From: Candidatus Hadarchaeales archaeon
GTDB taxonomy: Archaea; Hadarchaeota; Hadarchaeia; Hadarchaeales; Hadarchaeaceae
Length of the DNA stretch: 24,444 nt
Reading direction: 5' to 3'
Assembly: GCA_038851075.1 (NCBI GenBank)
Contig: JAWCLG010000013.1
Location: 1 to 24,444 of the forward strand
This document shows positions 1-8,217 of this stretch, piece after piece. Within the stretch, counting starts at the first letter, position 1. Every line of letters starts with the position of its first letter. The notes beneath the pieces were generated by a model. That model was not told the origin of the DNA. It searched no databases and was given only the letters and a program-made list of their open reading frames with translations. The position numbers were made by a program, and so were the translations under genes.

Positions 1-102
1 GAACTTTGGGGACGGCACAACGGGAAGCGGAGTAACAACGTCTCACACCTATCAAACCTCCGGGAACTACAACGTGACTCTGACCGTTACTGATAATGAC
101 GG
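1..102 (+). repeat. Left copy of a perfect inverted repeat, at least 102 bp, running off the window edge
   Basis: Positions 1-102 are the exact reverse complement of 1391-1492. Identity ends at 103 vs 1390 (Gly codon GGG vs GGA). Confidence 0.97.
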
Positions 103-331
103 GCTGACCGACACATATTCGGCGATTTTGGCAGTGTTGGGACAGACTTCTGGTGATAATCAACCTGGCGGTGGACAGCCTGGGACCGATAATCAACCAG
201 GTGGGGGCACCGGGATAATTATATCAACAAATGAGTTGATAATCGGTATAGTGATTTTAGTCGTGATAGTGATTATCGTGGCTTTCTTGATCTCAAGGAG
301 AAAAACTAGCGGCGGACCATCGGGCTGGTAA
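2..331 (+). CDS. 5'-truncated surface protein: end of a PKD domain, Gly/Gln/Pro linker, C-terminal TM anchor
   Basis: The frame is open from position 2 and reads NFGDGTTGSGVTTSHTYQTSGNYNVTLTVTDNDG (PKD signature). It continues through DNQPGGG repeats, the hydrophobic helix ELIIGIVILVVIVIIVAFLI and the basic cluster SRRK to SGW-stop. The ORF-track start at 74 is an internal GTG. Confidence 0.9.
   Translation, partial: NFGDGTTGSGVTTSHTYQTSGNYNVTLTVTDNDGLTDTYSAILAVLGQTSGDNQPGGGQPGTDNQPGGGTGIIISTNELIIGIVILVVIVIIVAFLISRRKTSGGPSGW
155..207 (+). repeat. Short direct repeat in the linker (DNQPGGG x2, 33-bp period)
   Basis: gataatcaacctggcggtgg at 155 and gataatcaaccaggtggggg at 188. Confidence 0.8.
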
Positions 332-350
332 AACCTTCACAAGTATCAGA

Positions 351-382
351 ATCAAAGCATCTGCTTGATAAATGCTTAAAAT
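351..382 (+). promoter_or_regulatory. Putative BRE/TATA promoter of the wHTH gene, with overlapping imperfect palindromes
   Basis: TTAAAA at 376-381 lies about 28 nt before ATG 409, preceded by A-rich GATAAATGC. Palindromes: ATCAAAGCA-TC-TGCTTGAT (351-369) and AAGCAT-N11-ATGCTT (355-377). Confidence 0.5.
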
Positions 383-408
383 TACCATTCCTAGATTTAT
401 TTGGGAGA

Positions 409-1056
409 ATGGGCAGAAAAAACATAGTATTTCGCGAGATACTATATAGAGTAATTGAAAAAGACGAATGGTATATGACACAGAAATCCATAGCAGAAAC
501 TTGTAAAGTTTCTCTTGACACCGCCAATAAGGTTGTAAAGACTCTGCATAATTTTAAGGCGGTTGAAAAAAAGCCACTTGGTTTTCGTGTGGTTAATCTG
601 CAAAAGTTGTTGACTTACTGGGCCTGCACCAGAAATATGTATAAGGATATAACCTACGTGACCTACTCCCCTGATCCGGCGAGTAAAATTGAACGTGACT
701 TACCGAAGGATGCGATATTCACAGCGTTCTCTGGTTATGCCAGAAAGTTCGCCGAAGCTCCGGCGTACAATGAGGTTTACATTTACGCAGATTCCGGCGC
801 TGTAAAAAGAATGTATCCAAAAAAAGATGTGTCACGCCCGAACATCATTGTGCTGGCTCCAGATCCGCATCTCAGGGCGCTCAGTGAGGATGGAGTTGCA
901 CCGCTGCCTCAGATTTATGTCGATCTCTGGCAAATCGGAAGCCCAAAAGCTGAGAGAATCTTGGTGGATCTGGATCGTGTTCTCAAAACAAAGCCGATTG
1001 AGAAGTTCCGCGAGATGGTCTTGCAATGGCGTGCTGAAAAACAAAAGAAGACATGA
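409..1056 (+). CDS. Winged-helix DNA-binding protein with a C-terminal AbiEi-like (type IV TA antitoxin-like) domain
   Basis: N-terminal HTH pattern TQKSIAETCKVSLDTANKVVKTL, then LLTYW, TAFSG and VYIYA. The C-terminal PLPQIYVDLWQIG motif recalls AbiEi_2/DUF2186-type proteins (recognised from memory). Confidence 0.6.
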   Translation: MGRKNIVFREILYRVIEKDEWYMTQKSIAETCKVSLDTANKVVKTLHNFKAVEKKPLGFRVVNLQKLLTYWACTRNMYKDITYVTYSPDPASKIERDLPKDAIFTAFSGYARKFAEAPAYNEVYIYADSGAVKRMYPKKDVSRPNIIVLAPDPHLRALSEDGVAPLPQIYVDLWQIGSPKAERILVDLDRVLKTKPIEKFREMVLQWRAEKQKKT

Positions 1057-1074
1057 CGGCGTGGTGCGGCACGT

Positions 1075-2238
1075 CTATGCCCAGCCAGAATTTATTGTGG
1101 CTTTGTTTCTTTTTCGGATAATGTACGCTATAACCGATGCGATAGCCCCCACGATAAAAACGCCCATGATTGTCATTCCTCCCGGCACGATAACGGTTCC
1201 ATTCGTTGAATCGCTACCTCCAGCATATATGTTGTCCCCAGTTGCGCCACCTTGTGAACCACCGGAGCCGCCTTCAACCCCTTCTTCAGTACCCCCTTCG
1301 GCGCCTCCCTGGTCTCCCATATTCTCCTGATTGCCCGTGTTTTCAATTCTTTGTCCCACGCTTATGGTTCTCGTCAGTCCGCTGCTTAATCCGTCATTAT
1401 CAGTAACGGTCAGAGTCACGTTGTAGTTCCCGGAGGTTTGATAGGTGTGAGACGTTGTTACTCCGCTTCCCGTTGTGCCGTCCCCAAAGTTCCAGGAATA
1501 CGAGACGATGGTGCCGTCCTCATCTGAAGAGCCAGATGCATTGAATGTAATCGAATCCCCTGCCCTTGGGGATGCTGGAGAGTAGGTGAAGCTCGCGGTC
1601 GGGTTCTGCAGAGCAGAGGTGCCGCCAGTGAAGCGTATGTAATCGAGGTAAACGGTGCTGCTGTATGGTGATCTGTCGAAGACTATGTTGATCTGGCGCA
1701 ACCTAGAAAGATCAACCGGTGCAGCCACCCAAGGAACCTTTGAAAAACTGGAAAGAGGAACAACTATTTCCCCCCAGCTCGTTCCCGGGACCGTGACGTA
1801 CGTATAGCTGACTTCACTAGAACTGCTATTAATTTCTATCTTCATCTGCTCATTACCAGACGTGCCTCTGGCATACATCCTCAGCTCATTGTACCCGCTG
1901 ACATCAATTGTGCTGTTTGGCTGAGCGGCTGGGTCAATATCATTCGCATAGCTCCAGTAACCGCACCACTGCCCTGATGGAAACGAATATGAGATGGAAA
2001 GAGCGTAATTGCCCTCATATTTATCTGTCGAAAAGGTTAACGTGGGGTCATAGTCTCCAGCCCCATCAGAATTTGTATCGGGAGACATTGCTCCCACCAT
2101 CCCGCCGAGATTAGTGCCCAAATTTCCATCATTGAAATCATCGTAAACGAGGTCTGCAGCTGCTACAAAATTGGATGATGTTGCTAATAGGAGAACAAGG
2201 CACGTACAAATTAACGGTACCGATAGAATCTTGCGCAT
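1075..2238 (-). CDS. Secreted, membrane-anchored carbohydrate-binding (CBM11/CIA30-like) + PKD domain protein
   Basis: Signal peptide MRKILSVPLICTCLVLLLA...AAA. Galactose-binding-like beta-sandwich motifs (YDDFNDG, DVSGYNELRMYARG, WGEIVVPLSSF, VYLDYIRF). PKD domain (PTASFTYSP...FNASGSSDEDGTIVSYSWNFGDG). Gly/Glu-rich linker, TM helix, RKRNK, then SGWA-stop. Confidence 0.85.
   Translation of the reverse strand: MRKILSVPLICTCLVLLLATSSNFVAAADLVYDDFNDGNLGTNLGGMVGAMSPDTNSDGAGDYDPTLTFSTDKYEGNYALSISYSFPSGQWCGYWSYANDIDPAAQPNSTIDVSGYNELRMYARGTSGNEQMKIEINSSSSEVSYTYVTVPGTSWGEIVVPLSSFSKVPWVAAPVDLSRLRQINIVFDRSPYSSTVYLDYIRFTGGTSALQNPTASFTYSPASPRAGDSITFNASGSSDEDGTIVSYSWNFGDGTTGSGVTTSHTYQTSGNYNVTLTVTDNDGLSSGLTRTISVGQRIENTGNQENMGDQGGAEGGTEEGVEGGSGGSQGGATGDNIYAGGSDSTNGTVIVPGGMTIMGVFIVGAIASVIAYIIRKRNKATINSGWA
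1391..1492 (-). repeat. Right copy of the perfect inverted repeat, within the PKD-coding sequence
   Basis: Exact reverse complement of 1-102. Both copies are read in the same codon frame in their genes. Confidence 0.97.
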
Positions 2239-2294: not shown

Positions 2295-5288
2295 TTAGTC
2301 TGCAGTATTTTCCCATGCACCGCTGTTCTTTCTGTTGCCAGCACCGTAGGAATTACCTGATCCATCATCCGTTATAACTCCGCCTCCGAAAAGGTCATTA
2401 TTTGATATGAGGTTGTTCTCCGAACTCCCGTCCATATAAATACCCTTGCTGGAGTTGTTATAGAACTTGTTGGACAATATCGCGTTGTTGTCGCCTCCCC
2501 ACATTCCTAGGCCAAAATCGTGAGATCCGATGTAGTTGCCGCTGATTACGTTGTAGGTTCCGTTGACCACAACTCCTGTCCCGGAACCGGATCCATATAT
2601 CGTACAGCCGCTGACGACATTATGAGAACCGGAGTTTATATCAATCCCATTCACACCGCTGCCAAAAATCACTGCCGAGGATATCGCGATTCTGGAGGAA
2701 TTGGTCAGATATACGCCATTGTCATTGCTGACGAAGCTGTTACCAGCGACAGTGTGCTCGTAACTGGTTGACATATAAAGTCCGTAACCGGCGTTGTAGC
2801 AGCACGAATTTCCCGCGATCGTGAACTGGCTTGTCTGCCAGAGATAAATTCCGCTTGCTTCATTATGGCTGAAAACGTTGTTCGCGATCACATTGCGCAC
2901 TGAGTACGAATCCCCGCCCGCATACAGCCCGTTCTGGGCGTTTATTTCGCTGAGATTTCCTGAGATGGTATTATATCTTGAGTTCCAGAGAACAATTCCC
3001 GTTGCTCCTGAATACCTGACGATATTGTTGACAACCATGCTGTTCTCCGAACTATCAAGCTTTATCCCGTCACCGCTCACACCCTCAACCGTGCACCCCA
3101 CAATTCTGGAGTTCACAACGCTGCTGAACGATATACCGTTTGTGCCTCCCCTCACCCTAATATTCGCCACCACGACGTTCTCCACCCCGGAGACATAAAT
3201 CACATTTATTGCTGAGGTGGTCACAATGGTGGTCCCGAGTCCAGATCCTACCAGCATCACGTTAGACTTTGAGATGGTGATCGCCGAGCCGATCGAATAG
3301 GTCCCCTCCCTTATGTAAACTGAACCGCCTTCATTCGGAAGCGCGTTGATTGCCTGCTGTATATCCGTAAAGTCACCGTTATCCAGAGATGTCGCAACCA
3401 CGAAAGTGGCTGCCCCAGGAGAAAAGGTTACATTGCTGGGGCTCACGCTGCCACCGGGCATCTGAATGCTGTTTGTCACCGTCAGATTTTCCACAACAAC
3501 ATTATCCATGCTGATGTTTTCAGAACCGGGCTTCCTGAATATGCTTGTCACATAGAGGTTCTCCATTACCACGTTCTCCATCGTTACTTGAGATGAGCCG
3601 CTCTTCACGTATATGCTGGTCACGTATAGATTATCCAGCTCTATATTGTCCGCAAGTTTGGCGCTGGTTATCGCTCCGTTCTCTATGTCTTCAGTCCAGA
3701 TATATCTGGTCCCTAAACCTCCATCAACAACGTCTCCGCCAGCGTTTCCATATGCCTGATTCCCGTTCAGCCTGTTGTTGCTGCTGTTGGCGTCTATTTC
3801 AATGCCTTTCCACTCCCAAGCTCCGCTCGAGAAATTACCTATAAGAAGATTGTTGTCTGAGTTCTCAATTTTTATGTTCCCCCTGTTTCCGTGAGCTCTG
3901 TTTGAGGATACAATGTTGTTGTCAGCCTGTTTCAGCAAAATCCCAAAAAGTCCATTGCTCGCACACTGGTTGCCCGATACAGTGTTGCCATGGGAGTTCT
4001 CCAGCCGTATGCCGTCGGTGTTCAAGTTACCCGAACACTGATTTCCGGATATAGAGTTGTAATCTGACCCTCCCCACAGGTAAATTCCATAGTTGGTGTT
4101 TCCCGAACACTGATTTCCAGATATCACGTTATGGGTGGATCTCTTGGTTTCATAATTCTCCAGCTTTATTCCGTCATATGTATTCCCGGTGACTATGTTG
4201 TTTGCAACGGTGTTATTCGCCGCCCCTGCCACAAGAATACCTATTCCAGTGTTGGACTCCACGATGTTGCCGGAAACCACGTTGTAGTTTGAGCTGTACA
4301 TGACTCTGATCCCATGTTCTCCATTTCCACGCACCACATTGCCCGTGATCACGTTGTTTGAAGCCTCCCAAAGGGTGATTCCTCTGAGCGTGTTTCCTTC
4401 GCATATATTTCCGGAGATAATGTTGAACCTCGGCTCAGAGCCAGACACTGAGTAAAGGGTTATCCCGTCCTTCACGCTTCCGGTGACGACGCAATTTCCG
4501 ATTACATTGTTCTCCGACAGTCCTCCAATGTTTATTCCGTCACCGCCTGCACCTCTTATCCATACCTCGAGCACCTTCGAGTTCCTCACGTGGCTGAAAT
4601 ATACCCCGTTAAGCCCGCTTCCGCAATCTATGGTAATTCTGCCAAGGATGATGTTCTCATCTGACGCATTTTTGTTCTTAATCGCGTCAACCGCTGCGGA
4701 GACTCTTATCACGGTAGCCGCGCCCGAGCCTATCAGTGACACGTTTGATGGAATCTGTATGCTCGATGTGATCGTGTATATTCCCTCCTTGATCAGTATC
4801 TTCCCACCGGAGGAAGGAAGCGCGTCTATGGCATCCTGAATGCTGGTATAGTTCCCATTCTCAGGTGATGTTGCAACGACGAAAGTTGCTGACCCAGGCG
4901 TTATATCCAGATCCGAGAGAGTAATCGCTCCCGGGGCCAGCTTTTCACGCGTTATGGAATAATCTGAAATATCTTCTGCCGTTATCGAACCATCCGCTAT
5001 CTTGGCACCGGTCACCGCGCCGTCAGCTATCTTGCTTGATGTGACTGCTCCGTCAGCTATCTTATCCGTCGTCACGGCACCTCCTGCTATCTTCGCCGAG
5101 GTAACCGCACCGTTCGCTATCTTGCTGGTTGTTACTGCGGAATCTGCTATGTTCCGGGTGTTGACCTCTTCTATTCCAACTCCTGAAACCGGAGGCACAA
5201 CACTGGGGATGGTTCTGACAGTCAGCACTCCAAGTAAGACTCCAACAAAAAGGGTCCCAATCAGCAGTATTTTAAGCGCCTTTGCCAC
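2295..5288 (-). CDS. N-terminally anchored or secreted right-handed parallel beta-helix protein (NosD/pectate-lyase-like, tailspike-like) with two beta-helix modules
   Basis: GTG start with SD GGGTGA (5295-5300) and a hydrophobic N-terminus. KIAxGAVT 10-aa repeats follow. There are two copies of the cap ATFVVATS..NG..T.IQ.AI.ALP..GG...I.EG.Y, each followed by many GI.L..S..N.ISGN rungs. Confidence 0.9.
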   Translation of the reverse strand: MAKALKILLIGTLFVGVLLGVLTVRTIPSVVPPVSGVGIEEVNTRNIADSAVTTSKIANGAVTSAKIAGGAVTTDKIADGAVTSSKIADGAVTGAKIADGSITAEDISDYSITREKLAPGAITLSDLDITPGSATFVVATSPENGNYTSIQDAIDALPSSGGKILIKEGIYTITSSIQIPSNVSLIGSGAATVIRVSAAVDAIKNKNASDENIILGRITIDCGSGLNGVYFSHVRNSKVLEVWIRGAGGDGINIGGLSENNVIGNCVVTGSVKDGITLYSVSGSEPRFNIISGNICEGNTLRGITLWEASNNVITGNVVRGNGEHGIRVMYSSNYNVVSGNIVESNTGIGILVAGAANNTVANNIVTGNTYDGIKLENYETKRSTHNVISGNQCSGNTNYGIYLWGGSDYNSISGNQCSGNLNTDGIRLENSHGNTVSGNQCASNGLFGILLKQADNNIVSSNRAHGNRGNIKIENSDNNLLIGNFSSGAWEWKGIEIDANSSNNRLNGNQAYGNAGGDVVDGGLGTRYIWTEDIENGAITSAKLADNIELDNLYVTSIYVKSGSSQVTMENVVMENLYVTSIFRKPGSENISMDNVVVENLTVTNSIQMPGGSVSPSNVTFSPGAATFVVATSLDNGDFTDIQQAINALPNEGGSVYIREGTYSIGSAITISKSNVMLVGSGLGTTIVTTSAINVIYVSGVENVVVANIRVRGGTNGISFSSVVNSRIVGCTVEGVSGDGIKLDSSENSMVVNNIVRYSGATGIVLWNSRYNTISGNLSEINAQNGLYAGGDSYSVRNVIANNVFSHNEASGIYLWQTSQFTIAGNSCCYNAGYGLYMSTSYEHTVAGNSFVSNDNGVYLTNSSRIAISSAVIFGSGVNGIDINSGSHNVVSGCTIYGSGSGTGVVVNGTYNVISGNYIGSHDFGLGMWGGDNNAILSNKFYNNSSKGIYMDGSSENNLISNNDLFGGGVITDDGSGNSYGAGNRKNSGAWENTAD
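3451..3638 (-). repeat. 24-aa (72-bp) degenerate tandem repeat, about 2.6 copies, between the two beta-helix modules
   Basis: LDNLYVTSIYVKSGSSQVTMENVV / MENLYVTSIFRKPGSENISMDNVV / VENLTVTNSIQMPGG. DNA matches at 3541 and 3613 are 72 bp apart. Confidence 0.75.
4981..5160 (-). repeat. 30-bp coding tandem repeat, about 6 copies, encoding KIA(D/N/G)GAVT(S/T/G)x
   Basis: GCTATCTT recurs at 4996, 5026, 5056, 5086 and 5116, with GCTATGTT at 5146. Confidence 0.9.
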
Positions 5289-6227: not shown

Positions 6228-7025
6228 ACGACGGAATATCTGTTCGTCACGGACTTTGACAAGACGCTGAGCGTGGACGACGCTGGATTACTGATGAGTC
6301 TAAAGCTCGGCATTACCAGGGAAGAATTTGACGATAAGATAAAGTCCCTCAAGGAAAAGAGTCTGACGAAGTTCGGGGCCGAGGTGCCATACCTAATCCT
6401 TCACGACCAGGACTTCAAGGGAAAGGTTACTAAAGAGGTGCTGCTCAACGTTGGAAAGGAGATAAGGCTGAAAAAACACCTTCCCGAGCTGGCGGGTATT
6501 TTAAACAGAGGGATAAACGGAAACAGGTTCTCATTTCACGTCATATCTGCCGCACCTCAGGAGGTCCTAGAGATGTCCCTGAAAGGGATAGTTCCCCCTG
6601 AAAACGTTCACGGCACCATCTTCGAGTATGACGAAAAAGGAACAGTAAAAGGTGTGAAAAAAGCAATAGCTGGCGCGGCCAAGGTTGAGGCGCTGGATGT
6701 TGTGCGGAGAAAGGAAAAGATCCCATTGGACAGGACCATATACGTCGGAGACGGGTTCTCCGACATGTACATAATAATGTATGTCAGGGCATATCACGGA
6801 TACACAATCGCGGTAACTCCGACATCATTCCTTGGGCACATCTGCAGAAAGACCGTTATCTCAAACGACGCGCTGAGCCTTCTTGCCCCAATACTTGAAG
6901 ATATACTGGGTTTCTCGCATGACGAGGTCAGAAAATTCTACGAAAAAATAGGCCATCCGCTGCAGACCTGGGAAAAGGCGAAAGTGGAATGGTTCGACTT
7001 CGGCAGCGAAACAAAATACCCCTGA
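6228..7025 (+). CDS. HAD-superfamily hydrolase (phosphoserine-phosphatase-like, HAD-IB); start codon uncertain, ACG 6228 proposed
   Basis: Motif I YLFVTDFDKTL (6237-6269) is in frame upstream of the track's GTG at 6273. Motif II VISAA, motif III K in GAAKVEAL, motif IV IYVGDGFSD. There is an in-frame TGA at 6219-6221. Confidence 0.85.
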   Translation, partial: TTEYLFVTDFDKTLSVDDAGLLMSLKLGITREEFDDKIKSLKEKSLTKFGAEVPYLILHDQDFKGKVTKEVLLNVGKEIRLKKHLPELAGILNRGINGNRFSFHVISAAPQEVLEMSLKGIVPPENVHGTIFEYDEKGTVKGVKKAIAGAAKVEALDVVRRKEKIPLDRTIYVGDGFSDMYIIMYVRAYHGYTIAVTPTSFLGHICRKTVISNDALSLLAPILEDILGFSHDEVRKFYEKIGHPLQTWEKAKVEWFDFGSETKYP

Positions 7026-7096
7026 GAACCGAGGTATCCTTACTAGACCACCAAAATATCTTTTAATTGTCAGTGCGAGATATGCACGGTGAACGG

Positions 7097-7672
7097 TTGG
7101 ACGATATAATAGCGGTGCTATTTGTAATCACGGCCGTGCTGCTGTTTGTTTTCATCCTGATGACGAACAGGAAGCTGAGCAGATATCAGAAACTTAAGCA
7201 GGAAAACGAAACGCTTAGAAATGAGGTCGCGAAGCTTAAAACCGTCAACAGGACCCTGATGAGCAACGCCGGAATCGGACCTCTCTCCCGGGCCAAGAGA
7301 AATCAGGTCCTGTTCGAGTTCATCAGGGACCTGGAGGCAGTGAGGGCTGCCGTGGCAGGGGCAAAGGTCGCTCAGGAAACACTGGAGAGGAAATACGGGC
7401 TTAAACCGGGGGAAGAGCTACTGAACCGCATACTCGCAAACCCGGAAATAGAAACCTCGGTGAAGAACGGCATCGCGGACGAGATCCTGGTGGGAGAAGT
7501 CGGCAGAACTCTCATGAAATGCCTGGAAAAAGGGATGACGATAGATGAGGCTTCGGAGAAGGCAGGCGTCCCGCTGTCAGTGGCCAGGGGACAGGTGATA
7601 AGGCTCCAGCTTCTCGGATATATAGATTCCAGGCTGAAGCCGACCGAGAAAGGAAATCAGTCAATAATCTGA
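7097..7672 (+). CDS. Hypothetical protein: N-terminal TM helix, coiled coil, C-terminal winged HTH
   Basis: TM IIAVLFVITAVLLFVFILM; heptads YQKLKQENETLRNEVAKLKTVN; wHTH GMTIDEASEKAGVPLSVARGQVIRLQLLGYIDSRLKPTEKG. The start is TTG 7097 (SD GGTGA 7088-7092) or ATG 7082. Confidence 0.7.
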   Translation: MDDIIAVLFVITAVLLFVFILMTNRKLSRYQKLKQENETLRNEVAKLKTVNRTLMSNAGIGPLSRAKRNQVLFEFIRDLEAVRAAVAGAKVAQETLERKYGLKPGEELLNRILANPEIETSVKNGIADEILVGEVGRTLMKCLEKGMTIDEASEKAGVPLSVARGQVIRLQLLGYIDSRLKPTEKGNQSII

Positions 7673-7686
7673 AATCGGGTGGACTG

Positions 7687-8217
7687 ATGAACCACAGTGC
7701 GTTAGAGGGTGGGCTGATCATGCCAGAGGAACTCAGGGCTGTGCTCAGGCGTCCTTTGGGAAGGCTCTTTCCAAGCCCGGTTAAACTCGTGGAATTTCTG
7801 TCGGAGAAACGTCCAATTTCAATAATTACTGTAGGGGACAGGACCAGCGTGGAGATGATAAAAAGCGGGATTAAGCCGGATATTACTGTGGTTGATTTCA
7901 AGGAGATGAGAGAACCCGTAGAGAAAAAAGCGCGAAAGTTGCTGATGTCGTTTGGAAAACGTGAAAAGATGGTCACGAATCCCCCGGGGACAATCACCCC
8001 CGGACTCATTGCTGCAATCGCTGATGCGGAAAAGGGCACTAGAATAATCGTTAATGGAGAGGAGGATCTGGCGGTTCTCCCAGCGGTGCTCCTGTCAAAA
8101 GAGGGAACTGTTGTGATATATGGCCAGCCGAAGGAGGGGATCGTTCTGATCGAGGTAACCGTAAAGAAAAAGGAAGAAGTTGCCGGAATCCTAAAGAAAT
8201 TTAAACGGATACCATGA
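7687..8217 (+). CDS. GTP-dependent dephospho-CoA kinase (DUF359/COG1909)
   Basis: Motifs LRRPLG, ITVGDRTS, VVDFK, NPPGTIT, VNGEEDLAVLP and YGQPKEG. It sits in its usual position upstream of rps24e. Confidence 0.92.
   Translation: MNHSALEGGLIMPEELRAVLRRPLGRLFPSPVKLVEFLSEKRPISIITVGDRTSVEMIKSGIKPDITVVDFKEMREPVEKKARKLLMSFGKREKMVTNPPGTITPGLIAAIADAEKGTRIIVNGEEDLAVLPAVLLSKEGTVVIYGQPKEGIVLIEVTVKKKEEVAGILKKFKRIP

Follow-up and report, generated by a model that had tools for sequence, protein, structure and literature searches.

Two convergent surface-protein genes sharing a 287-nt inverted repeat in a Hadarchaeales archaeon: probable gene conversion and past inversion of the segment between them

The DNA considered here is a stretch of 24,444 nucleotides (nt) from a Candidatus Hadarchaeales archaeon (contig JAWCLG010000013.1 of assembly GCA_038851075.1). 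This whole stretch, called the window below, is the entire contig C13 of the 1.0-Mb, 88%-complete, 29-contig assembly (G000), and its position 1 is the contig end. At that end lie two convergent surface-protein genes, X and Y, which share an inverted repeat and enclose a gene for a winged-helix-like protein (wHTH). The orientation of wHTH is opposite to that in related genomes, and the arrangement probably arose by gene conversion between X and Y and at least one inversion of the DNA between the repeat copies.

Two genes and the tract they share

Gene Y is complete in the window, and gene X is represented there by its 3' fragment. The 5' part of gene X stands at the end of contig C7; its 237 amino acids (aa) comprise a signal peptide and a CBM11/CIA30-like domain and enter FDRSPYSSTVYLDYIRF...SPASP. 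Conceptual joining of the two parts gives a reading frame of 1116 nt (371 aa) that is in frame and has a single terminal stop. Domain order is shared by the two proteins, and over 157 aa of the N-terminal domain their identity is 70%. Upstream of the repeat (R), the N-terminal part of gene X, called U1 and located at the C7 end, and that of gene Y, called U2, have 64% nucleotide and 64% amino acid identity over 187 aligned codons. The PKD_4 profile, whose cut-off is 27 bits, matched gene Y at aa 212-292 (86.2 bits, E = 1.6e-24) and the gene X fragment with 48.1 bits; the CBM_11 match of gene Y (E = 1.7e-4) was below cut-off. The hydrophobic N- and C-terminal segments of both proteins were read from the translations, with no predictor involved. 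On domain matches and translations, X and Y are convergent paralogues predicted to encode PKD cell-surface proteins with a CBM-like domain and a membrane anchor.

A first-pass annotation of the window had described a perfect 102-nt inverted repeat that encodes the same PKD segment, in frame, in two convergent genes. The repeat and its reading frames are as described: the arms 1-102 and 1391-1492 are 100% complementary and 1288 nt apart, and the runner-up inverted repeat within the window is 34 nt at 71%. Its length is greater than was thought. The last 111 nt of contig C7 are the exact reverse complement of C13:1567-1677, from which it follows that the full repeat is 1391-1677; a contig from a metagenome run (X1, below) covers the same interval. 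These 287 nt amount to 95 codons plus 2 nt, correspond to aa 188-283 of gene Y, and span the end of the CBM-like domain, a linker, and the PKD domain as far as the residues DNDG. Copy 1 is split between the C7 end (111 nt), 74 unassembled nt equivalent to 1493-1566, and the C13 start. A count of the 102-mer, proposed earlier as a check, found two copies in the assembly, both of them arms of this repeat, and no third copy of the repeat was found in the assembly. The suspicion that the window begins where an assembler broke at a repeat was also well founded: the start of C13 is such a break. Among the 58 contig ends in the assembly, 13 are exact copies (≥25 nt) of sequence elsewhere, ten of them 89-127 nt long.

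Both edges of the tract are sharp and sit on synonymous wobble differences. At the inner edge identity stops, as the first-pass annotation had noted, at DNDG, specifically at the wobble base of the Gly codon (GGG vs GGA); at the outer edge, at 1677, DNA identity between genes X and Y changes abruptly from 64% to 100%. Within the repeat, 37/37 codons of the C7 part are identical, as are all 102 nt of the C13 part, compared with 55 of 114 same-residue degenerate codons outside it. The paralogues are mosaics in that two more stretches, of 38 and 32 nt, match exactly beyond the tract.

Downstream of the tract, X continues into tail A and Y into tail B. The linkers and anchors had been called unrelated at first. 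They are strongly diverged, yet alignable (local alignment z = 6.8 vs shuffles), and they share a layout: each tail has a Gly/Asn/Gln-rich linker, one transmembrane (TM) helix, and a basic stretch ending SGW. In a collection of 5.8 billion proteins, the best 120 of 1421 hits to gene Y included none at 71%-100% identity and no swapped-tail variant close to gene Y; the nearest full-length relatives among them were 57% and 51% identical.

Between the two tails lies wHTH. Its protein has a below-cut-off match to Pfam RepL (E = 0.003) and matched nothing in NCBIfam or among PDB sequences. Homologues occur in 33 of the 41 genomes searched, this one included, often in several copies per genome, and the family is kept across this archaeal order, usually beside an archaeal MinD gene. 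The spacer 5' of wHTH is presumed, from its A/T-rich box, to be an archaeal promoter that travels with the segment. Across the order, MinD/ParA-like ATPase and wHTH-family genes repeatedly adjoin in several paralogous pairs and orientations; such recurrence suggests a two-gene module, perhaps for segregation.

Table 1. Features of the locus, its flanks, and comparable features elsewhere in the assembly (positions without a contig name are those of the window)
Feature	Position	Strand	Basis or remark
Gene X 3' fragment, 109 aa: PKD end + tail A	2..331	+	Open reading frame (ORF) list; PKD_4 E = 1.2e-12
Gene X 5' part	C7:45920-46630	+	Encodes N-terminal 237 aa of gene Y paralogue
Repeat copy 1, assembled inner 102 nt, in gene X	1..102	+	Reverse complement of 1391-1492, 100%
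Tail A: linker, TM helix, basic C-terminus ending SGW	104-331	+	ORF reading
Segment between repeat copies, 1288 nt: tail A, wHTH gene + 77-nt spacer, tail B	103..1390	.	Inverted relative to syntenic relatives
Intergenic spacer 5' of wHTH	332..408	+	A/T-rich TTAAAATT box ~30 nt before ATG
wHTH, 215-aa winged-helix-like protein	409..1056	+	Weak Pfam RepL match only
Tail B: linker, TM helix, basic C-terminus	1075-1390	-	ORF reading
Gene Y, 387 aa: signal peptide, CBM11/CIA30-like domain, PKD domain, tail B	1075..2238	-	ORF list and Pfam
Repeat copy 2, complete, 287 nt, in gene Y	1391..1677	-	Arms 1-102, C7 end, X1 contig
U2, diverged N-terminal part of gene Y	1678..2238	-	Comparison with gene X
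NosD/right-handed beta-helix surface protein, 997 aa	2295..5288	-	NosD E = 2.5e-57
HAD-like hydrolase gene, synteny anchor	6273..7025	+	79% aa identity to the G001 gene adjoining the 5' end of G001 wHTH
MinD/ParA-like + wHTH neighbour pair	C22:6147-7768		Also e.g. L074, L079, L085
C6 repeat arms	C6:1-160 and C6:33023-33179	inverted	Exact 121-nt repeat
C6 second tract	C6:1601-1869 vs 31962-32230		269 nt at 92%
Intein-plus/intein-minus gene pairs	C24:580-4755 vs C25:6808-8160; C3:103338-104972 vs C8:40403-41944; C20:4384-6816 vs C23:7884-8651

Orientation of the enclosed segment

In the same-genus genome G001, the locus reads solute-binding protein (+), MinD (+), a small ORF encoding a signal peptide plus anchor (+), wHTH (-), and HAD-like hydrolase (+), followed by three further collinear genes (+). 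In the present assembly these elements are spread over two contigs: C7 carries the solute-binding protein (+), MinD (+), and, further along, gene X (+), and C13 carries wHTH (+), gene Y (-), NosD (-), DUF3108 (+), and HAD (+) with the genes that follow it (+). Because the solute-binding protein and MinD lie on C7, and HAD with the next genes on C13, in the order of G001, the end of C7 joins the start of C13. This is the same adjacency that the shared repeat implies. A practical lesson is that contig ends inside such repeats, here those of C7 and C13, can be joined by synteny.

Within this shared framework wHTH is reversed. It is co-directional with MinD (C7) and HAD (C13) here and on the strand opposite to both in G001. 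In the comparison with related genomes, which the first-pass annotation had proposed, wHTH is convergent with MinD in all six relatives that have the solute-binding protein-MinD-wHTH order (G001, G010, G022, L026, L028, and L029), and ours is the only such locus in which the two are co-directional. An orientation opposite to that in 6/6 relatives indicates that the segment has been inverted at least once. The tails agree with a breakpoint within the surface gene. An anchor tail closely faces the 3' end of wHTH in three genomes, at a gap of 2 nt (G001), 17 nt (G022), or 18 nt (this assembly). In the last the tail is tail B, part of gene Y, and gene Y is the surface gene nearer to HAD. A breakpoint inside the surface gene predicts tail B on the HAD-side gene; a flip of wHTH alone does not give it.

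The surroundings vary between genera. G001 has no gene Y, NosD, or DUF3108 gene at the locus, and G022 has other cohesin/dockerin genes. Paralogues with CBM and PKD domains stand beside wHTH in one of 73 related wHTH loci, that of G022, where the strongest inverted repeat has 71 nt at 73% and none is of high identity. No same-species locus was found among metagenome contigs, where the best wHTH relative had 60% protein identity and records very near the window may have been excluded. At the position of gene X in G001 (L018:6952-7763) there are weak CBM-like remnants outside long ORFs and a 107-aa ORF with signal peptide and anchor, which looks like a decayed surface-protein gene.

Public data for the stretch consisted of four hot-spring metagenome runs of one study, in the form of Logan contigs (k=31). 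Run X1 gave a 287-nt contig covering exactly 1391-1677 at a depth of 12.9, with flank depths of 5.44 for tail A, 5.36 for the spacer and tail B, 4.0-4.7 for U2, and 6.9 for U1-type sequence; a repeat at about double the depth of its flanks fits two identical copies. X1 may be the source sample, and hence not independent support. No variant letters were found within 1391-1677 in the run contigs, which can hide rare variants. In record 11 of run X2 and record 14 of run X3, C7-type upstream sequence runs on through the complete 287 nt without a single mismatch; since these contigs carry the full repeat, the 74 unassembled nt are identical in the gene X copy. The X3 record continues 13 nt into tail A, and the link U1 - repeat - tail A is thereby seen apart from the assembly. 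Coverage in X2, at a depth of ~3, is a basis for no inference: there was none at 1-480 and 1681-2160 except a short U1-type match, and a contig starts exactly at 1391 and passes 1677 unbroken into U1-type sequence. The k=31 contigs of these runs, which cannot bridge 287 nt, gave no indication of two orientations side by side.

A further X1 contig matches the window from 2126 upward and below 2126 has 143 nt that belong neither to gene Y nor to gene X; at up to 4 mismatches this sequence was not found in the assembly. This contig represents a further N-domain allele in the community.

Conversion, inversion, and other accounts of the locus

The account that we favour, with moderate confidence, combines gene conversion with one or more past inversions, both by homologous recombination between the repeat copies. 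RadA-pathway recombination between the inverted paralogues would have rendered the 287-bp tract (1391-1677) identical within genes that are otherwise ~64% identical, and a crossover within the same tract would, at least once, have inverted the 1288 bp between the copies. Such an inversion of 103-1390 would swap the linker and anchor tails of proteins X and Y, and would reverse wHTH, along with the 77 nt of spacer upstream of it, relative to the ancestral order that the relatives retain. Synonymous-site identity throughout the tract, together with edges at wobble positions, is a signature of gene conversion. We infer that the repeat copies served as the inversion breakpoints and that RadA was the agent of recombination.

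The first-pass annotation had proposed an invertible cassette, with recent gene conversion between paralogues as the alternative. Conversion has become part of the best explanation, and the cassette has survived in part: a past inversion is supported by the orientation of wHTH, and a dedicated cassette is not, the layout being found in 1/73 loci. The expectation that recombination between the copies would flip the enclosed gene and keep both ORFs is borne out by the in-frame geometry. The lack of a recombinase in the window was likewise correct, and it extends to the rest of the 88%-complete genome, in which neither a tyrosine recombinase (Phage_integrase, PF00589) nor a serine recombinase (Resolvase, PF00239) was matched; as controls, these profiles gave matches in 14 and 12 of 14 genomes, respectively. 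Pfam scans of five window ORFs and five C7-end ORFs listed no recombinase family. A Rad51/RadA family match is present on contig C5 (E = 1.9e-93).

Several observations weigh against this account. No read or contig spans a repeat copy plus both flanks beyond 13 nt, so for the source sample the orientation depends on the assembler and a single X3 contig. The comparators are distant, with wHTH identities (tblastn) of 62% for G001 and 54-60% for the others. Two loci are arranged otherwise, L021 with MinD 6 kb off and divergent and L022 with wHTH upstream of MinD, and more distant loci (40-50% identical) likewise vary in wHTH/MinD layout; the wHTH genes of these deviating loci may be paralogues. 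Comparisons of tails A and B with relatives' tails (the G001 small TM protein, the G022 tails, the C7 cohesin-anchor protein, and the proteins P0004 and P0008) gave z = 1.4-7.3 on short low-complexity segments. The inversion might have had other breakpoints and been followed later by conversion, and a recombinase could sit in the missing part of the genome. Lastly, this metagenome-assembled genome bears signs of strain mixture, namely genes at contig ends that occur in duplicate, one copy with and one without an intein.

An unlikely but credible alternative is that gene conversion alone acted on X and Y, and that the orientation of wHTH either goes back to an unrelated older rearrangement, in a surface-gene locus that changes fast, or was picked arbitrarily by the assembler. 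The mosaic identity of the genes, with its extra exact runs outside the tract, suits this idea, as do the strong differences of the locus between genera and the difficulty of orienting a 287-nt repeat with short reads. So do look-alikes of the tails in other organisms: the tail of P0004 begins LTDT, resembling tail A, and that of P0008 begins LSS, resembling tail B, while the N-terminal part of P0004 is closer to U2 (65.0%) than to U1 (60.5%). The tails may thus predate the current similarity of U1 and U2. What conversion alone leaves unexplained is that the limits of the inverted unit coincide exactly with the one long repeat of the region, and that the conserved convergent micro-synteny of tail and wHTH moved along with that unit. 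Further, the X3 contig supports the assembled link of U1, R, and tail A.

It is rather improbable, in our judgement, that the segment is an active, reversible inverton, comparable to shufflon-like phase variation and driven by frequent RadA recombination or by an as yet unfound trans-acting invertase. If so, both anchor/linker combinations would occur among the cells, and wHTH would be found in either orientation. Supporting this idea, the repeat is inverted and in frame in two convergent genes whose ORFs stay intact in either state, there is evidence of one flip in evolution, the perfect identity suggests recent or repeated exchange, and the assembler left one repeat copy unclosed. There are also precedents: pneumococcal hsdS inversions at 298-bp and 85-bp repeats persist without PsrA (PMC4948785), and one archaeal 'partial intergenic' inverton is recorded among 42 long-read data sets (bioRxiv 10.1101/2023.03.11.532203). 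Against it stand the lack of tyrosine and serine recombinase matches in the 88%-complete genome and the rarity of the architecture, which in its single other occurrence has no high-identity inverted repeat; an arrangement so little conserved makes a programmed switch unlikely. Moreover, the swapped tails are similar and each gene keeps its own promoter and N-terminus, with no obvious on/off or specificity change, and breaks at ~100-nt repeats are general in this assembly. The specific form in which RadA, free of any recombinase, drives in an uncultivated hot-spring archaeon a reversible inverton whose flipping at the 287-bp coding repeat goes on reshuffling the linkers and anchors of two glycan-binding-type surface proteins would be an outside chance. 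Were it true, wHTH would be reversed relative to its MinD partner, and populations would be heterogeneous in cell envelope or segregation-gene expression with no dedicated enzyme.

An artefact is very improbable, whether in the form of a chimeric or hairpin contig end, of a collapsed repeat, or of alleles from two strains stitched into one; in each form no single genome would carry the inverted repeat. In favour of an artefact, the repeat touches a contig end, the intein-plus/intein-minus duplicates of NrdD, RtcB, and DegT at contig ends suggest strain mixture, and the X1 allele branching at 2126 is absent from the assembly. Against it, both arms are on one contig with different flanks, each coding a complete linker-TM-basic tail; the flanks and the 287-nt unit reappear in independent k=31 contigs from three runs; and G001 synteny predicts exactly the C7-C13 adjacency that the repeat implies. 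A hairpin or chimera was rejected; a hairpin would mirror the flanks too, and the flanks of the arms are not mirrored. We read the locus as a probable by-product of recombination between inverted paralogues, with no dedicated switch.

Surrounding genes, similar tracts, and known systems

Beyond gene Y, the NosD-like gene is absent at the G001 locus, and its protein had no tblastn match in the eight fetched genome loci L018-L025. Near its N-terminus, window positions 4945-5153 (-) hold at least five tandem 30-nt units that encode a 10-residue repeat (~xAVTSxKIAD/G). The gene for a DUF3108 protein (+) lies between the NosD-like gene (-) and the HAD gene (+), and the genes at 7067-8217 are collinear with G001.

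On the C7 side the order is GH94 phosphorylase, solute-binding protein, archaeal MinD, a CBM11/cohesin/dockerin protein, a cohesin plus anchor protein, and gene X. The stretch C7:38867-46630 (locus L091:2237-10000) is a cluster of cohesin/dockerin surface-protein genes adjoining the GH94 phosphorylase and a sugar-binding protein; one member, of 572 aa, has two CBM11-like domains, a cohesin, and a dockerin, and is followed by the membrane-anchored cohesin protein. The cluster resembles a cellulosome-like display system, here in an archaeal genome of 1 Mb. G022 holds a similar set.

Two further patterns in the assembly involve repeats at contig ends. On contig C6, two inverted GLUG-motif surface-protein genes ~33 kb apart share a 121-nt exact inverted repeat at the contig start, which would make them a second case of the pattern of X and Y. 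NrdD, RtcB, and a DegT-type aminotransferase each occur twice, one copy with an intein (LAGLIDADG domain) and the other without, and the pairs share exact tracts of 99-123 nt at contig ends; these duplicates could reflect presence/absence polymorphism between co-binned strains, or they could be true paralogues.

A comparable case of inverted paralogues is tufA and tufB of Salmonella: RecA-type recombination keeps them identical along tracts, and crossovers between them invert the intervening DNA. Unlike tufA and tufB, which are near-identical throughout and far apart, X and Y are diverged archaeal genes that share one short tract and lie 1.3 kb apart. In the G segment of phage Mu (Gin) and its P1 counterpart (Cin), inversion puts alternative C-terminal parts onto a constant N-terminal part; those systems have a single promoter and a single constant part, with a serine invertase alongside, features that do not apply to the present locus. 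To our knowledge, DNA inversions in archaea are little documented. The present locus offers a clean, testable case, with a 287-bp identical tract, convergent surface-protein genes, a ~1-Mb archaeal genome, and comparative evidence of a flip. If the flip is ongoing, it would provide phase-variation-like heterogeneity from general recombination alone, in a reduced genome in which no site-specific recombinase was found; if the locus is static, it would be a textbook footprint of gene conversion plus inversion.

The closest documented analogue appears to be the hsdS locus (cod/Spn556II) of the pneumococcal type I restriction-modification system. Its inverted repeats (PMC4948785) lie inside opposed paralogues, inversion exchanges 3' coding parts in frame, and the inversions at both IR2 (298 bp) and IR3 (85 bp), repeats comparable in length to the 287 nt of X and Y, persist in a psrA deletion mutant of S. 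pneumoniae. A single hsdS copy is expressed there, the exchange alters the specificity of the enzyme, the locus includes a gene for a tyrosine recombinase, and polymerase chain reaction showed mixed orientations (PMC4948785). X and Y differ in that each is a complete gene with a start of its own, membrane anchors are what is exchanged, and no recombinase was found in the 88%-complete genome. Chanin et al. listed 12 putative invertons across 42 long-read data sets from archaea, one of them 'partial intergenic' (bioRxiv 10.1101/2023.03.11.532203). As in that class and in shufflons, the segment overlaps coding sequence and its inversion flips homologous protein parts. The invertons of that class were called from long reads with both orientations and are generally invertase-driven, with short repeats, whereas the repeat here is a 287-nt coding tract and the evidence is a fixed difference to relatives. 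Among the marks of a recombinase-driven inverton, bounding inverted repeats are found at this locus, and a dedicated recombinase and conserved architecture are not; the marks of recombination between paralogues are found, namely inverted paralogues, a sharp-edged tract identical at synonymous sites, and a strand-exchange protein. By analogy, the locus seems to behave like the recombinase-independent part of hsdS- and shufflon-type systems.

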